From Synechococcus sp. (GTDB lineage: Bacteria; Cyanobacteriota; Cyanobacteriia; PCC-6307; Cyanobiaceae), in contig JBJBCN010000003.1 of assembly GCA_047285805.1 (NCBI GenBank), forward strand, positions 800,001 to 864,000: a stretch of DNA of 64,000 nucleotides. Reading direction: 5' to 3'. Made by a program: the position numbers and the translations under genes. Position 1 is the first letter of the stretch. Every line of letters starts with the position of its first letter. The notes under the pieces are model-generated. The model did no database searches, was not told the origin of the DNA, and worked only from the letters and a program-made list of their open reading frames with translations. Positions 1,297 through 39,721 of the stretch are shown here, in pieces.

Positions 1297-3680
1297 GAAC
1301 GAAGCAGGTGGAGGGTCTGGGGCAGATCCAGGCGCAGGGCGCTGGCCACGATGCGCAGGGTTCGCAAGGTGGAGTTGTTGGGGCTCATCTTCGCTGCTTG
1401 ATCGAGCGCCACCTGGGCTTGGCCCGGCCGAAAGCGATAAAGCTCTACGACTCCGAGCCCCAGCAGGGCATTCGGATTAGAGGGGTCCAGGCTCTTGATT
1501 TGTGTCAAGGTCTGCGCTGCATCGCTGGCATGCCTTTGCAGCGCCTGGGCGAGGGCCAGGCTGTAGAGGTCGTTCAGATCACCGGGATCGCCCTGGAGTC
1601 GTGCCCGCAGGATGGACTCGGCGTCGGCCAAATAGATCTGCTCGGGGTCACTCTGGTTGATCTGACCGACCTTGGAGAAGAGGCTGGCCAGTTCCCCGCG
1701 GCGCAGCTGGCCCCCGAGGCCGCGCAGCAAGGCGACACGGTTGGCGGCCAGGACGCCGGGCTCCTGGGTCCCAGCTTGTAGGTCAAGCGTGGTGCTCCGC
1801 GGCAGCGGGATGGATCGCCGCTTGCCGTTGGCCTCGAGCAGTTGCAGTTGGGGGCTCCAGCTCCCGCCGTTGTTGCTGAACGCGAGCTCCTGCTGGACGG
1901 TGGCGCAGCCTTGGGGCAACCGCAGCAGGCCTTGGCCGAGGGCCTGGTCCGCTTCAAGCCGTTGCCCGGCTTGCTCCAGGGTGACCAGCAGGCGGGAATC
2001 CTGAAGAACGGCGCTCGGGCCGGAGACCTGGATGTCCAGGCCACCTGGAATAGCGGTGATGGCTCCGCTGAGCTGACCGGAGCAACGAACCGGGGTGGTG
2101 CTGACGCTGACGGATTGGCGGCGCAGCAGCTGGGCCTCACTGCCATCGGGGAGGGGCCAGCTCTTCACTGGTTTGAACGCGGCAGAGCCCTGCAGCAGTT
2201 CGGCTTGGCGCGCCTGCCGTTCATCGCTCATTACCCCCTGGTCGCCCCCTTTGCTGAGGAACCAGTCGAAGTTGCTGAGTTCCTCTTCGAGTCGATCCTT
2301 CGGGGCCACGGTCTGGCGGGCGGCCACGCGGAACTGCTGGCGCCGCCCCTCGGCCTCGAGGTTGAAGGCATTCAGCCCTTCGCTGTCGGGCAGCACGGCC
2401 AGGGTGGAGAGCTGGTTGGGACTGGTCTCGCGGACCGTCGCCACGATCGCCTCAAGGGGCCAGCCCCCCTGGGGGTTCGGGCGATGGGGCGGAAAGCTGC
2501 TCAGCTTTGGCCCCCAGCCGAATTGGCTCCAGAGCGCTCCGAGCAGGGCGACGAGCACCAGTGCGGCCTGCCAAACGGGGGCCCAGCGGCGCTCGACGCT
2601 GGCCACCACCAGTCCCAGCCCTAAGGCCAGCTGGGGAAGTAGGGGCAGGACAAAACGAAAGTCCTTGCTGGTCATGAGGATGCACACCAGCAGGCCCCCC
2701 AGCGGAAAGCTCAACCACCAGAGCAGCCAGGCCTTGTCTGCCTTGATTGACGGTCTGCGCTGCACCAGGGCGATGACTCCGCCCACCAGCACTAGAGCCG
2801 TCAGGCTGCTCCCCAGCATCGCCGGCAGCAACTTCAAGTAGTAGAGCCAGCCCTCCAGGCTGTTGGCCTCCAATCCGTCTTGGTAGGCGACCCCCCACTG
2901 GCGGGCCTTGTTGATGGTGCTCAGGATCGTCAGCCAGTTTTGGCTGAACCAGGGCCAGACCAGCAGCCAGGCGATCAGTCCCCCGGTCGCCCCCTCGGCG
3001 AGCGGACGCCAATGGCCGCGGAGCGCCTTGCGCAGGCCGCCGACAAGTAGCAGCACCAGCGGCAGCCAGAGCAGAACGAGCCCTGTGGGCCGGGTCAGTG
3101 CCACGAGCCCAAGGCCGATGCCGCTGAGCACGGACCAGAGCCAGCGCTGCTGGCGGGCGAACCAGCGCCGCTGGCTGAGCACCCACCAGCCGGCGGTCAT
3201 CAGTGCCGTCAGGCTCAGATCAATCAGGTAGTCGGTGCGTTGGTTGAGCAACGCGGGTGCGGCCGCGACAAACAGCGCCGCCCAGAGCCCCGCGCGGCGG
3301 CTGTGCAGTTGGCGCCCCAGGCCGTAGCAGCTCAGCAGCAGGATCCCGTTGAAGACCGCGCCGGAGGCCATCGCACTGCTGAAGCTCGGCCCGAGCAGCT
3401 GCAGAACGGGGGCGCTGAGCACGTAGGTCAGCGGGCCCCTATAGCTGGGTGCCTGGTCCCACAGGGTGTGCCACCAGCCGCCGCTCCAGGGGGCCGGCTG
3501 GCTGAGCACTTGCCAGACACCTAGGGCGCGGCTGAGGTGATCCCCTTGGTCCCAGGCCGGCGGGGCCTGGTGCTGCTGAATCCAGAGGCCATCCAGCAGC
3601 AGAGAGATCAGCCAGAGGGCCAGCAGCAGAAGGCCATCACGCCGGTTCAGTTTCCGCTGGGGCTGCGTACCAAGGTCCAT
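1293..3680 (-). CDS. GT-C fold (PMT/ArnT-like) membrane glycosyltransferase with C-terminal TPR-like repeats
   Basis: 795 aa with many TM segments; PPAWDQGDH loop after TM1, KDFRFVLPLLP motif, C-terminal TPR-like helices (DPSNPNALLGLG). Confidence 0.75.
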   Translation of the reverse strand: MDLGTQPQRKLNRRDGLLLLALWLISLLLDGLWIQQHQAPPAWDQGDHLSRALGVWQVLSQPAPWSGGWWHTLWDQAPSYRGPLTYVLSAPVLQLLGPSFSSAMASGAVFNGILLLSCYGLGRQLHSRRAGLWAALFVAAAPALLNQRTDYLIDLSLTALMTAGWWVLSQRRWFARQQRWLWSVLSGIGLGLVALTRPTGLVLLWLPLVLLLVGGLRKALRGHWRPLAEGATGGLIAWLLVWPWFSQNWLTILSTINKARQWGVAYQDGLEANSLEGWLYYLKLLPAMLGSSLTALVLVGGVIALVQRRPSIKADKAWLLWWLSFPLGGLLVCILMTSKDFRFVLPLLPQLALGLGLVVASVERRWAPVWQAALVLVALLGALWSQFGWGPKLSSFPPHRPNPQGGWPLEAIVATVRETSPNQLSTLAVLPDSEGLNAFNLEAEGRRQQFRVAARQTVAPKDRLEEELSNFDWFLSKGGDQGVMSDERQARQAELLQGSAAFKPVKSWPLPDGSEAQLLRRQSVSVSTTPVRCSGQLSGAITAIPGGLDIQVSGPSAVLQDSRLLVTLEQAGQRLEADQALGQGLLRLPQGCATVQQELAFSNNGGSWSPQLQLLEANGKRRSIPLPRSTTLDLQAGTQEPGVLAANRVALLRGLGGQLRRGELASLFSKVGQINQSDPEQIYLADAESILRARLQGDPGDLNDLYSLALAQALQRHASDAAQTLTQIKSLDPSNPNALLGLGVVELYRFRPGQAQVALDQAAKMSPNNSTLRTLRIVASALRLDLPQTLHLLRS

Positions 3681-5233
3681 GGGGCCAGATCATCGCCCGA
3701 GGCCAGGGGAATGAGGTCTCGATTGGCCGAATCCTGCAGGGCCGATGCCTCGATCCAGGCCAAAGCGCCGGGGGCGAGGTCTTGCGCGCTCTTGAGCTTG
3801 GGACCGAGCTGCGGTGTTCCCAGGGCGACGAGGATCAATTGGGCATGGGCCTGGCCGCTCAAGGAGCCCTGGCTGATTACCGCCACCGGTTCGGCGGCCA
3901 GCAGCGCAGGCAGCTCACCAGTGCTCAGGGCTTGGCGCACGGCGGGAGAACGATCACTAAAGAGGCCGCCCTGCACTAGCAGGCTGAGGGCCAGCCAGGG
4001 ACCGATCAAGATGGCGGCGAGGACGCGTTTTTGGCTCTGTTGTTGGGGCAGCAGGGCCCAGCTCAGGCCGAGCACCAGGGTCGCCAGCCCCACCAGCGCG
4101 GGCGTCAGGGGCGGCATCTCGAGGTTGAGCAGGTTGCCGGGGAACAGCATGAGCACCCCGGCAAGGCTCAGCAGAACGCCGAGGCCCGCCAGGAACCAGG
4201 CGATGGCCCGCGGCCGAGCAATCCCGGTTCGCACGAAGAGACGCAAGCCGCTGGCGGCCCAGATCGCCAGAAACGGCGTGAGCTGCAGGCCGTAGTACGG
4301 GGTCTTGGTGCGGAAGCAACTAAGCAGCAGCAGCAGGCTGAGTGGATAGACGAGTAAAAGCAGCCCCTCCTCGGAGCGCCAGCGCTTCAGGCCCCACGCA
4401 AGTCCAGCAATGGCCACCAGGCTCCAGGGAGCGCAGTTCGCCGGAATGTTCCACATGTAATACAAGGGCCCGGCGCTGTAGATGTCGCTTTCGGAGAGGA
4501 AGAGCAATTTGTCCAGCAGTCCGCCGACCACGCCGGCGCCGTAGTGCTGCAGGCTCAAACCCAGCCAGAGCGCCACGGGGAGCCAACCCAGCAGCAGTCC
4601 GGACCAGAAGGCCGGAGCGCGCAGCAGGAACCGTCGCTTGAGCAGTAGGAAGGGCAGCAGGGCGAGGACCGGCAGGGCGGTCATGAAGCCCTTAATCAAG
4701 AATGCTGGCCCCAGCCAGATCCCTGCGGCGATCTGCCAACCGCGTGAGGCGTGGGGCTGGGCCTGCAGCAGGGCCCACATCCCGAGCAGCTCGAGGGCCA
4801 GCAGGGGCATGTCCTGGCTGGCGAGGTGGGCGTAGTTAATAAAGAGAGGAGTGAGCGCCAAAAGGGCTGCACTCAGCCAACCCAGGCCTGGGCCGAGCAA
4901 ACGAGAGGCCAGGCGTCCGGTGAGCCAGAGCGCCAGACCTGCCGCAAGCAGGGATGGCAGGTGTGCCGCCCAGCTGCTGGGTCCTAAGAGGGTCTGGGCG
5001 CTGGCGATCAGCCACTGGACGCCGATGGTGCGATCAAACAGGGGTTGGTCCCACCAGAGGGGCGCCAGCCACTGGCCGCTCTCTTGGATCCAGCGGGCCT
5101 GCAGGGCGTAGTACCCCTCGTCGTGGGCCAGGTCGCTGCGTGGCGCAACGCTGATCAACAGCGGCAGGAAGGGCAGCCACCGAAAACTAGACCTTCGGTA
5201 TCCGTTGCTACGTGTCATTGCTGTTTGTGGCAC
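3647..5233 (-). CDS. ArnT/PMT_2-family (GT-C) glycosyltransferase; start codon uncertain
   Basis: HDEGYY motif, AFLIKG, KTPYYGL, multiple TM helices. Confidence 0.8.
   Translation of the reverse strand: MPQTAMTRSNGYRRSSFRWLPFLPLLISVAPRSDLAHDEGYYALQARWIQESGQWLAPLWWDQPLFDRTIGVQWLIASAQTLLGPSSWAAHLPSLLAAGLALWLTGRLASRLLGPGLGWLSAALLALTPLFINYAHLASQDMPLLALELLGMWALLQAQPHASRGWQIAAGIWLGPAFLIKGFMTALPVLALLPFLLLKRRFLLRAPAFWSGLLLGWLPVALWLGLSLQHYGAGVVGGLLDKLLFLSESDIYSAGPLYYMWNIPANCAPWSLVAIAGLAWGLKRWRSEEGLLLLVYPLSLLLLLSCFRTKTPYYGLQLTPFLAIWAASGLRLFVRTGIARPRAIAWFLAGLGVLLSLAGVLMLFPGNLLNLEMPPLTPALVGLATLVLGLSWALLPQQQSQKRVLAAILIGPWLALSLLVQGGLFSDRSPAVRQALSTGELPALLAAEPVAVISQGSLSGQAHAQLILVALGTPQLGPKLKSAQDLAPGALAWIEASALQDSANRDLIPLASGDDLAPWTLVRSPSGN
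5198..5211 (+). promoter_or_regulatory. Putative NtcA binding site
   Basis: GTATCCGTTGCTAC fits GTA-N8-TAC, about 105 nt upstream of the porin ATG. Confidence 0.4.
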
Positions 5234-5302
5234 ATGACCGCTTCTCGGGCCCCTTCGAGGCCTTGATCATCACAAAGAGGCCTTGTGCCTCAATCCTCTA
5301 TT

Positions 5303-5312
5303 GGTGTGAGGA
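5303..5312 (+). promoter_or_regulatory. Yfr1-type sRNA target site / RBS of the porin mRNA
   Basis: GGTGTGAGGA just upstream of the ATG; complementary to the conserved Yfr1 core (ACUCCUCACAC). som porins are described Yfr1 targets. Confidence 0.65.
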
Positions 5313-5315
5313 CCA

Positions 5316-6908
5316 ATGAAACTGTTCCAGAAGCTTCTTCTGGCGCCTGCAGCACTGGGCCTTCTGGCTCCTGTCGCTGCAAACGCCGCTGACGTCAACA
5401 TTGCTGGCCTGAGCCAGTACGGCGTCGAAGAGCAGGTGACTTCGATCACCCAGTTCTCCGACGTGCAGCCCACCGACTGGGCTTATCAGGCACTGAGCAA
5501 CCTGATCGAGCGCTACGGCTGCGTCGCTGGTTACCCCAACGGCACCTATCGCGGCAACCGTGCGATGACCCGCTATGAAGCGGCCGCACTGCTGAACGCT
5601 TGCCTCGACCGGATCACTGAGGTGACTGACGAGCTCAAGCGCCTGATGAAGGAATTCGAGCGTGAGCTGGCTGTGCTCCGCGGCCGCGTTGATGGCCTCG
5701 AGGCCCGCGTCGGCGAACTGGAAGCTACTCAGTTCTCCACCACCACCAAGTTGCGTGGTCTGGCCACCTTCGTTGTGGGTGCTAACAGCTTCACCGGAAC
5801 CAGCCCCAACGTTGATACCAACAAGGATTCGCTGGGCGCTACCACCTTCAACTACGACCTGCGCCTGATCCTCGACACCAGCTTCACTGGTAAGGATCTG
5901 CTTCGCACTGTCCTGCGTGCTGGCGACTTCGATGGCTCCGCTTATTTCAGCGGCCTGACTGCTCTCGAGACTGCTTTCCAGTCTCCTGCAGCTGACGACG
6001 TCGTTTCCATCAAGCGTCTCTTCTACAACTTCCCCGTTGGCGACGACTTCAGCGTCACTGCTGGTGCAACCGTCCGTGTGGATGACGCCGGCATGCTCGG
6101 CATGTGGCCCAGCGTCTATCCCGCTGACACCGTTCTCGACTTCTTCACCTACGCCGGTGCTCCTGGCGCATATGACCTCGATGGTCTGGGTGCAGGTTTC
6201 GGTGCCACCTACAACAATGTTCTGGGCTTCGAGGGTGTCACCCTGTCCAGTAACTACGTCTCAATCAACGGTGACGAAGGAACTGCAGGTCTGATGACCG
6301 ACAGCTCCAGCTCTGTGAGCGTCTCTCAGCTCGGCTACACCGGCGGAGAGTTCCCCGTCATCGGTGGTAGCGCTTGGGGTGCAGCTGTGGCTTACACCTA
6401 CAGCCAGAACAACTCTCTGTTCATCGCGACTCCGCTGGCTGGCTCTATGGGAGCTACCGGTGCCACTAACAGCTTCGGCTTGAGCGGCTACTGGGTCCCC
6501 GAGAGCACCGGCTGGATTCCTTCAGTCAGCACCGGTTGGGGCACCAGCTCTTTCCAAGATGCCGGCTATCGCACCGACACCTTCGCCAAGGCCCAGTCTT
6601 GGTACGTCGGTCTGCAATGGCCTGATACCTTCGTCGCTGGTAACGACCTGGGCATGGCTGTTGGTCAGGCTCCCTTCGTGACCAGCACTGGCTACGGCGC
6701 TGTGGAAGGTCCTAAGACGCCTCTGGACTCCAACTACATGTGGGAGTGGTGGTACAAGTTCCAGGTGACCGACAACATCACTGTCACCCCGGCTCTGTAC
6801 TACATCCAGAACTACGAAGGCCAGAACGGCCGTGTTTCCACCAACGGCAACATGGACGCCTCCAACAATGTCTTCGGCGGCCTGCTGAAGACCACCTTCA
6901 AGTTCTGA
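5316..6908 (+). CDS. som: Cyanobacterial outer-membrane porin with SLH domain (Som / iron-uptake porin family)
   Basis: MKLFQKLLLAPAALGLL signal peptide, FSDVQPTDWAYQAL SLH motif, coiled coil, QFSTTTKL, C-terminal KTTFKF. Confidence 0.95.
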   Translation: MKLFQKLLLAPAALGLLAPVAANAADVNIAGLSQYGVEEQVTSITQFSDVQPTDWAYQALSNLIERYGCVAGYPNGTYRGNRAMTRYEAAALLNACLDRITEVTDELKRLMKEFERELAVLRGRVDGLEARVGELEATQFSTTTKLRGLATFVVGANSFTGTSPNVDTNKDSLGATTFNYDLRLILDTSFTGKDLLRTVLRAGDFDGSAYFSGLTALETAFQSPAADDVVSIKRLFYNFPVGDDFSVTAGATVRVDDAGMLGMWPSVYPADTVLDFFTYAGAPGAYDLDGLGAGFGATYNNVLGFEGVTLSSNYVSINGDEGTAGLMTDSSSSVSVSQLGYTGGEFPVIGGSAWGAAVAYTYSQNNSLFIATPLAGSMGATGATNSFGLSGYWVPESTGWIPSVSTGWGTSSFQDAGYRTDTFAKAQSWYVGLQWPDTFVAGNDLGMAVGQAPFVTSTGYGAVEGPKTPLDSNYMWEWWYKFQVTDNITVTPALYYIQNYEGQNGRVSTNGNMDASNNVFGGLLKTTFKF

Positions 6909-6920
6909 TCCAGAACAGCT

Positions 6921-6948
6921 AGGGCTCTCTCCTCACACCTAGAGCCCT
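6921..6948 (+). ncRNA. Hairpin presenting a Yfr1-like motif in its loop (candidate 3'UTR element or sRNA)
   Basis: AGGGCTCT-[CTCCTCACACCT]-AGAGCCCT, perfect 8-bp stem. Confidence 0.5.
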
Positions 6949-6962
6949 TTTTGACCTCGTTC

Positions 6963-6990
6963 AACCCCGGCTTCGGCCGGGGTTTTTTAT
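6963..6990 (+). terminator. Rho-independent terminator of the porin
   Basis: AACCCCGGC-TTCG-GCCGGGGTT followed by a T-run. Confidence 0.9.
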
Positions 6991-7240
6991 TGCTTAGTGC
7001 TTCGACTTGCTGGTGGTGTTCCTGTTGAACTGAACTGTCTTTTGGTGGTTCAAGGATGTTCGAAAAAGCTTTTTCATGAAGTTCGTGGTTCGCTTCTGCG
7101 GTGGGCATTGGGTCTTTTTTTAGTCCTCTCGCGATATCTGAGGGGGTAGATAATTTGACTTGGGGTATCTCGAAAGGTCTGGGTCGCTCTAGTCGCGCGG
7201 CCTTGATCCTTGAGGATGGGATCACCCCCGTCTGCGTTGC

Positions 7241-7927
7241 ATGGCCCAGTCCGTCCGCGATCCCTATCTGGTGCTCGGTGTGGCGGCGACAGCCAGTGGC
7301 GCCGAGATCAAGGCGGCCTACCGGTCCCTGGTGAAACAGCATCACCCCGATGCCGGCGGAGATGAAGAGGCGATCCTGGCGATCAACGCGGCCTGGGAGG
7401 TGCTGGGGGATCGCGAGCGCCGAGCCGAGCATGACCGCCATCGCGCCTTCAGCAGTCATCAGGCCACTGTGCGCTCTGCCGCCGCCGGTCAAGCCGCCCG
7501 CAAGGCAACGGCGGAATCGGCCCGAGGTGATGAGGCGCTGCTGGTTTGGCTGCAGACGGTCTACGCGCCGATTGATCGTTTGCTGGGTCAGGTCATCAAT
7601 CCCTTCCCCGCCGAATTCAAGGCGCTCTCCGCCGATCCCTATGACGATCAGCTCATGGAGGCCTTCTGTGCCTACATCGAGCAGAGCCAAGCCAAGCTCG
7701 AGAAAGTGGAGACGCTTTACCGCTCCATGGCTGCACCGGCCTCAGCCCAGGGCTTCAGCCTCAGCGTTTACCACTGCCTCTCCCAGGTCAAAGACGCCGT
7801 GGTCGAACTGGAGCGCTACACGATGGGCTATGTCGACAACTACCTCCACGACGGCCGCGAGATGTTGCGGGAAGCCAAGCAACGGCGTACCCGGCTCCAG
7901 GCGGAGCGCCGTCGGCTGGACCTTTAG
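7241..7927 (+). CDS. J-domain (DnaJ-type) protein
   Basis: DPYLVLGV...IKAAYRSLVKQHHPD (HPD motif). Confidence 0.9.
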   Translation: MAQSVRDPYLVLGVAATASGAEIKAAYRSLVKQHHPDAGGDEEAILAINAAWEVLGDRERRAEHDRHRAFSSHQATVRSAAAGQAARKATAESARGDEALLVWLQTVYAPIDRLLGQVINPFPAEFKALSADPYDDQLMEAFCAYIEQSQAKLEKVETLYRSMAAPASAQGFSLSVYHCLSQVKDAVVELERYTMGYVDNYLHDGREMLREAKQRRTRLQAERRRLDL

Positions 7928-39363: not shown

Positions 39364-39721
39364 CGTTTAGGAACTGACGCTTTCACTGCGTTAGTCACCG
39401 CCAGAGCCGAGAGGTGAAGGTTTTGTGGTTAACGAAGATGCAGTGAGGGTGTGAGGTCCCGTCAAAAGTTTTTTAGTTGTGGAAGCTTGTTGCTTGCATG
39501 ATTGTCGACTCTCACGGTTGATGGTTGTGTCGGTGTGCAGCGAGTGGAGCAACGACCGGATCTGAGATCCTGGAAAGTCTGAACGAAAGAGATTTTGTTT
39601 TGCACTCTTTGAACGCTTCTGTCAGAGGAAGTGGCATCAACTGCAACCGTGCGCCAGTGCGAGTTGTGGGTGAAGCAAATCAGATTGAGATTGCGTAAGC
39701 AGTCAATAGGATTTGATCTAC

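Follow-up and report, generated by a model that had tools for sequence, protein, structure and literature searches.

Why should the message of a cyanobacterial porin carry, a few nucleotides behind its stop codon, a sequence complementary to its own ribosome-binding site? We have found this arrangement in a window of 64,000 nt (the whole stretch of DNA that was analysed) from a species of Synechococcus. The sequence behind the stop codon is of the type found in Yfr1; no small RNAs are more widespread in Cyanobacteria than this one and Yfr2. Our best explanation, a tentative one which we place slightly short of an even chance, is that a conserved hairpin in the 3' UTR exposes a Yfr1-type seed which acts in trans on the ribosome-binding sites of the porin family and gives negative feedback.

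The porin gene and the hairpin behind it

The gene (positions 5316–6908, + strand) was identified from its open reading frame and by domain assignment. It codes for a porin of the Som type with 530 amino acids, an SLH domain and an OprB barrel, and it ends with the stop codon TGA at 6906–6908. In front of it, complementarity and the comparison of paralogues define a target site of Yfr1 type, GGTGTGAGGA (5303–5312, + strand), placed over the Shine-Dalgarno sequence: it covers GAGGA and ends 3 nt before the ATG at 5316. Four of the five porins of this genome have this site in common, the fifth is without it. Its portion GTGTGAGGA is invariant among 18 aligned leaders. Folding and the leader alignment also give a GC-rich hairpin ahead of the site (5277–5291, + strand), which is kept among homologues though its sequence differs. 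With the start site presumed here, the porin leader probably begins close to this hairpin, which may serve to protect the 5' end of the message. Further upstream, about 85 nt from the porin start, a box TG(G/T)CACA (5228–5234, + strand) is nearly invariant in the alignment of 18 leaders; judging from this pattern it is likely to be a promoter element or the site of a regulator or other factor.

Behind the stop codon there is a hairpin (6921–6948, + strand), supported by folding and by covariation across homologues. Its stem has 8 bp, AGGGCTCT (6921–6928) paired with AGAGCCCT (6941–6948), and its loop has 12 nt, CTCCTCACACCT (6929–6940). Within the loop the seed TCCTCACACC (6930–6939, + strand) is the exact reverse complement of 5303–5312, and the contiguous match stops there at both ends. 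Both the geometry of stem and loop and the complementarity are precisely those described in a first-pass annotation of this DNA. The loop is identical to the Yfr1 core ACUCCUCACAC in 10 of 11 bases, the first one being different, and positions 6929–6938 are complementary to the 5' end of all three Yfr2 RNAs. The stem begins 13 nt after the porin stop, with no terminator in between. On one side of it a small hairpin of 6 bp lies over the stop codon (6902–6916, + strand); it was found by folding and recurs in many homologues, among which its arms vary. On the other side, folding and a terminator search give a terminator-like stem (6963–6984) with a U tract, together at 6963–6990 of the + strand. 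The region 6902–6992 folds with an energy of -36.5 kcal/mol (z -4.9) and none of 200 shuffles is equally stable, a result to which the terminator contributes much.

This element is not Yfr1 itself: no covariance-model match is found in the window, and the true gene is placed behind guaB on contig C2 (C2:1111390–1111447, 56.5 bits). The porin tail thus adds a further seed to that of Yfr1. A loss of Yfr1 can also be rejected as the reason for its presence, since Yfr1 is found in 22 of the 22 genomes of the genus that we searched; the same is true of Yfr2 (22/22). The genome studied here has three Yfr2 (Cyano-1) genes, all of them away from the porin element. It also has a Yfr1-like RNA under the Rfam cut-off (C2:257420–257478, - strand), which precedes a Yfr2 gene by about 180 nt, in a layout of Yfr10 type as in MED4, and with a predicted 12-nt pairing with porin leaders.

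The paralogues show some features of their own. Two of them (C2:1325523–1327133 and C2:917087–918697) are equal in length and nearly identical in their 3' regions, with different upstream DNA, which suggests a recent duplication or conversion. The paralogue at C2:926848 has a degenerate double seed in its 3' UTR (C2:928522–928610), before the terminator, for which a weaker pairing is predicted. In the closest relative (locus L002, around position 3360) the downstream tandem porin has ATC at the position where homologues have ATG, and the leader site before this ATC is intact.

Conservation of the seed and of its stem

We have compared this element with the rest of the genome. A seed of at least 8 nt within 120 nt after the stop codon is present in 2 of the 1269 open reading frames of at least 250 amino acids: they are the porin at 5316–6908 and guaB. 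A seed of 7 nt is present in 21 of the 1269. For a comparison among homologues we used 110 distinct porins, all collected by protein search alone, whose 3' end is complete and followed by at least 120 nt of sequence. Altogether we have 125 distinct porin ends, 15 of which are known only from a pattern search and are excluded from the counts. A contiguous seed of at least 7, 8, 9 and 10 nt is found in 38, 23, 15 and 2 of the 110 ends; the opposite strand of the same ends gives 4, 1, 0 and 0. The corresponding means of 100 dinucleotide shuffles are 5.8, 1.3, 0.39 and 0.05, with maxima of 12, 5, 4 and 2. Related genomes are not independent, so that these counts are not formal probabilities. The presence of the seed in porin tails exceeds chance. 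The complete match of 10 nt is rare (2/110), the conserved core having 7–9 nt. Conservation of the loop behind homologous porins, which the first-pass annotation had proposed to look for, is thus apparent in 38 of 110 ends at a length of at least 7 nt.

The distribution is uneven. In its own genus the seed is present in 14 of 22 porin 3' ends, and 72 of the 110 ends have no seed of 7 nt, among them whole clades which retain the leader site. A tree of 105 porin proteins shows the same feature: the seed is present in several clades and absent from others that have retained the site in their leaders. The seed accompanies 34 of 77 porins with a leader site and none of the 6 without it (p 0.077, with 27 further leaders not classified). 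Two or three seeds are found in 26 of the 38 seed-bearing tails; the porin of the window has one, and each leader has one site. Synechococcus WH7803 provides an example in its second tandem porin (L144, 6330–6450), which has a seed of 9 nt and a second, degenerate seed before the terminator.

In other cyanobacterial families a seed of at least 7 nt is present in 6 of 46 ends, with 0 in antisense; six of these 46 ends are also within the 110. Seeds of 7–8 nt are found after porins in six other families (L029, L166, L178, L179, L181 and L194), and a leader site was detected in five of them. The presence of seeds in these more distant families hints at either an ancient design or repeated origins. 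A loose pattern searched through the whole family gave matches in 148 of 395 genomes, which we do not take as a prevalence, since a reversed control is also frequent; a porin stop precedes only 15 of 30 retrieved matches.

The stem is conserved as a structure rather than as a sequence. A plain MAFFT alignment followed by RNAalifold gave no consensus stem, because loop lengths vary between about 12 and 17 nt and the stems have different sequences. We therefore used an alignment-free test on the first seed of each of the 38 tails: 24 of them have an enclosing stem of at least 6 bp. The mean energy of their arms is -12.7 kcal/mol, compared with -5.9 when the arms are swapped among genes and -5.1 when they are shuffled; the native arms are better than every swap in 10 of 24 cases and better than all 50 shuffles in 16 of 24. 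The remaining 14 of 38 belong mostly to a second type of tail, whose unpaired seeds flank a small hairpin; it is also found in the tails of the paralogues.

A structure model built from three sequences was then scanned over 476 kb, and porin tails rank first. In the fitted alignment of 30 matches both sides vary in all 8 stem pairs, while 97.9% of the cells pair; the covariation score is 0.89, as compared with 0.25 when shuffled and at most 0.22 when slid. This alignment favours structure, being made of sequences selected by the model, from related genomes and with some hand-picked loci: 20 more pattern matches (19 behind a porin) had been chosen by eye, solely to broaden it. Covariation of the stem across homologues was the other comparison proposed earlier and it is found here; the sequence-level refutation that had been envisaged did not arise, because the loop is conserved and the stem covaries. 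Inside the seed, 22 of 25 single changes retain pairing through a G-U wobble, and the sole internal transition able to break pairing is absent among the observed changes. The changes that keep the wobble are transitions throughout, and transitions are the most frequent mutations. The porin-tail element is thus real, conserved and structured, and we have a strong prior expectation that it is functional.

Possible partners of the seed

The partners of the seed were evaluated with a simple accessibility-corrected calculation of pairing energies. The opening cost of the porin seed is predicted to be 0 and its net pairing with its own leader -11.6 kcal/mol. Its values with the four leaders that bear the site go from -10.7 to -12.6 kcal/mol, similar to those predicted for Yfr1 (-10.2 to -12.2). 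With the 5' ends of the three Yfr2 RNAs the predicted energies are -17.7 to -20.0 kcal/mol, with nearly no opening cost, and Yfr1 is likewise predicted to favour Yfr2. The base before the core is C or T in 15 of 17 exact copies; opposite it Yfr2 has a G and the leader a C. The base after the core fits the leader of its own gene in 2 of 16 cases. As read from these letters, the flanking bases lean towards Yfr2 as a partner more than towards the porin leader.

These values suggest an alternative, namely that the loop mainly docks Yfr2, the leader pairing being minor: the abundant porin message would titrate Yfr2 and set Yfr1 free, or Yfr2 would alter the stability of the message. The energy difference and the flanking base speak in its favour, several seeds in one tail would suit a sponge, Yfr2 is present in all the genomes of the genus that we searched (22/22), and PMC6778093 reports tighter binding of Yfr1 and Yfr10 to Yfr2 than to an mRNA target. 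However Yfr1 has the same preference in energy and yet it represses porin leaders, as described in PMC2796815; C/T flanks would also simply hold the loop unpaired; and a pure decoy could be placed on any message, whereas the seed is found only behind the class of genes that bears the target site. We consider this alternative rather unlikely. Pairing in cis appears less probable still. In this case seed and leader would pair within one molecule, closing the finished message, as in icaR, and Yfr2 could reopen it. A fold of the whole message as naked RNA does join 5303–5312 with 6930–6939, with a probability of 0.73–0.99, and extends them by five pairs (5296–5300 with 6940–6944); furthermore none of the 6 porins known to have a leader without the site carries a seed. 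This fold disregards ribosomes, and both it and the model used for the cognate test are blind to kissing loops. In that test, on the 5' and 3' ends of 35 genes, swapping the partners costs no stability (mean -4.91 for own and -4.94 for swapped pairs, own pair better in 17 of 35, p 0.93), so that the five-pair extension is not conserved. A tenth pair, found in just 2 of 110 ends, and the multiplicity of seeds against one site also argue against cis pairing. The first-pass annotation had left a choice between an RNA acting in trans and an intramolecular closure: the former fits best; the latter receives no support from the comparison among genes.

The element might also be a free-standing small RNA gene similar to Yfr10, with its own promoter, which by chance lies behind a porin and shares its terminator. 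Yfr10 does have this architecture, with the seed in the loop of a stem and then a terminator (PMC6778093), and ApcZ is a cyanobacterial RNA from a 3' end with an internal promoter (PMC8136909). The position of the stem, so close to the stop and with no intervening terminator, argues against it. No sigma-70-type promoter was found in 5100–7300, and a -10-like hexamer TAnnnT precedes the seed in 1 of 38 seed-bearing tails, a count whose control, made by eye, is imperfect: the hexamer is present before Yfr1 and two of three Yfr2 copies and absent before two other RNAs. Rfam assigns no family to the porin element, whether the window or 5100–7300 is scanned, the weak matches being terminators; a search with the Rfam model of Yfr10 (RF02362) has no match in the genome, though it gave none in controls either. 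We find such a gene very improbable. Finally, the complementarity could be incidental, if the C/A-rich loop serves to bind a protein or is just a neutral, pyrimidine-rich stretch that separates the gene from its terminator. The tails are indeed rich in C and U with degenerate repeats, and the distribution is patchy. Against this, composition-matched shuffles contain far fewer seeds, pairing is retained in most of the internal changes (22/25), and the motif is the known seed of Yfr1 behind a known class of Yfr1 targets. This is the least probable of the four alternatives, a very remote one.

We come back to the action in trans on porin leaders. The seed hairpin would be made as part of the porin message, in agreement with the lack of promoter signs, and it could act either from the intact message or from a cut-off tail. 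The linker 6917–6920, inspected by eye, has no cyanobacterial RNase E signature, which is very short: A at -3 and U at +2 (PMC8682795). The loop would kiss GUGUGAGG of another porin message and mask its Shine-Dalgarno sequence. Yfr2 would compete for the seed of the porin tail. If Yfr2 is bound by the tail, Yfr1 would be freed and the output of porins would be lower; an increase of Yfr2 should lift the brake on porins. Direct blocking and titration of Yfr2 share the same sign, so that negative feedback is a more robust prediction than its route, which is uncertain.

Published work on Yfr1 and Yfr10 is consistent with such an action. In reporter assays, pairing through this seed lets Yfr1 reduce the output from two porin leaders about threefold (PMC2796815). 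According to PMC6778093, Yfr10, which has the seed in a loop, has targets in common with Yfr1 and pulls down porin mRNAs; Yfr2 neutralises the repression. In the third pull-down table for MED4, which by file order corresponds to Yfr10, PMM1121 is enriched 8.6-fold and PMM1119 6.0-fold (PMC6778093). An E. coli GFP system is already functional with these leaders. On the other hand Yfr1 is present in every genome of the genus that we searched and is described as abundant, so that one more seed may make little difference.

A wider proposal, in which we have distinctly limited confidence, is that cyanobacterial porin messages are themselves regulators of the Yfr1 class: seeds, one to three per tail, would be displayed by covarying hairpins and silence the porin family, Yfr2 would switch them off, and the genes of the major outer-membrane proteins would in this way keep count of their transcripts within the Yfr1/Yfr2 network. 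If true, tail seeds, being tied to porin transcription, would bring to this network an input that varies, together with a feedback loop. PMC6974561 poses the question of how Yfr1 can exert regulation while being nearly constant.

Relation to known regulators

The element resembles Yfr1 (RF01116; PMC2190773, PMC2796815, PMC6974561) in 10 of 11 core bases, in the target site of porin leaders and in predicted pairing energy. They differ in structure: as described in these papers, the seed of Yfr1 is single-stranded between two hairpins, in a gene behind guaB, whereas the porin seed is in a hairpin loop. The first-pass annotation was right in calling the seed Yfr1-type and in placing Yfr1 itself elsewhere, but the Yfr10 class and the Yfr2 sponge had been overlooked.

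The Yfr10-like RNAs are Yfr10, Yfr12 and Yfr18 of Prochlorococcus MED4 (PMC2518516, PMC6778093). Like the porin element they have the Yfr1 motif in the loop of a stem, followed by a terminator (PMC6778093); both have poorly conserved flanks and are complementary to Yfr2 and to porin leaders. However the Yfr10 class is reported as separate transcripts, which in MED4 adjoin yfr2 genes, while the porin element is in the 3' UTR of the porin itself and is often doubled among homologues. An identity with the published Yfr10-like RNAs of WH8102 and SS120 can be rejected, since their probe loci have no porin nearby: one is behind a gene for an RpoD-type sigma factor, the other between two unrelated genes, as labelled from their translations. 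To class the porin element as Yfr10 would require a transcript. By analogy, it would act as a Yfr10 seed placed at the position of OppZ, CarZ or the icaR motif.

OppZ and CarZ of Vibrio cholerae (PMC7398697) also come from a 3' UTR complementary to the translation start region of their own class of transcripts. They are described there as RNase E products which act on operons and give negative feedback, and their sequence is unrelated to that of the porin element. The latter differs by belonging to a porin with paralogues and by a seed common to a free small RNA and a sponge. In the 3' UTR of icaR of Staphylococcus aureus, as reviewed in PMC7821165, an anti-Shine-Dalgarno motif matches its own ribosome-binding site, as it does in the porin; there the motif is UCCCC, in a long UTR with cleavage by RNase III, whereas no cognate tuning was seen in porin tails. 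Regulators derived from 3' UTRs are known in small number in Cyanobacteria: PMC8682795 counted one in 2021, ApcZ. This RNA of Synechocystis (PMC8136909) derives from a 3' end, but its target is ocp and not its own leader. Similarly OueS, from ompU of V. cholerae (PMC13376802), is a small RNA derived from a porin, but the targets reported are RyhB and others, not its own leader. Nothing that we read in the literature searched describes a seed of Yfr1 type within the 3' UTR of a porin gene.

A last observation concerns another region of the window. The sequence GGTGTGAGG is found around position 39449 (+ strand), about 270 nt upstream of a 16S rRNA gene, with two identical copies elsewhere in the genome. 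It probably sits in the rRNA leader, and it is a possible target of Yfr1 type.
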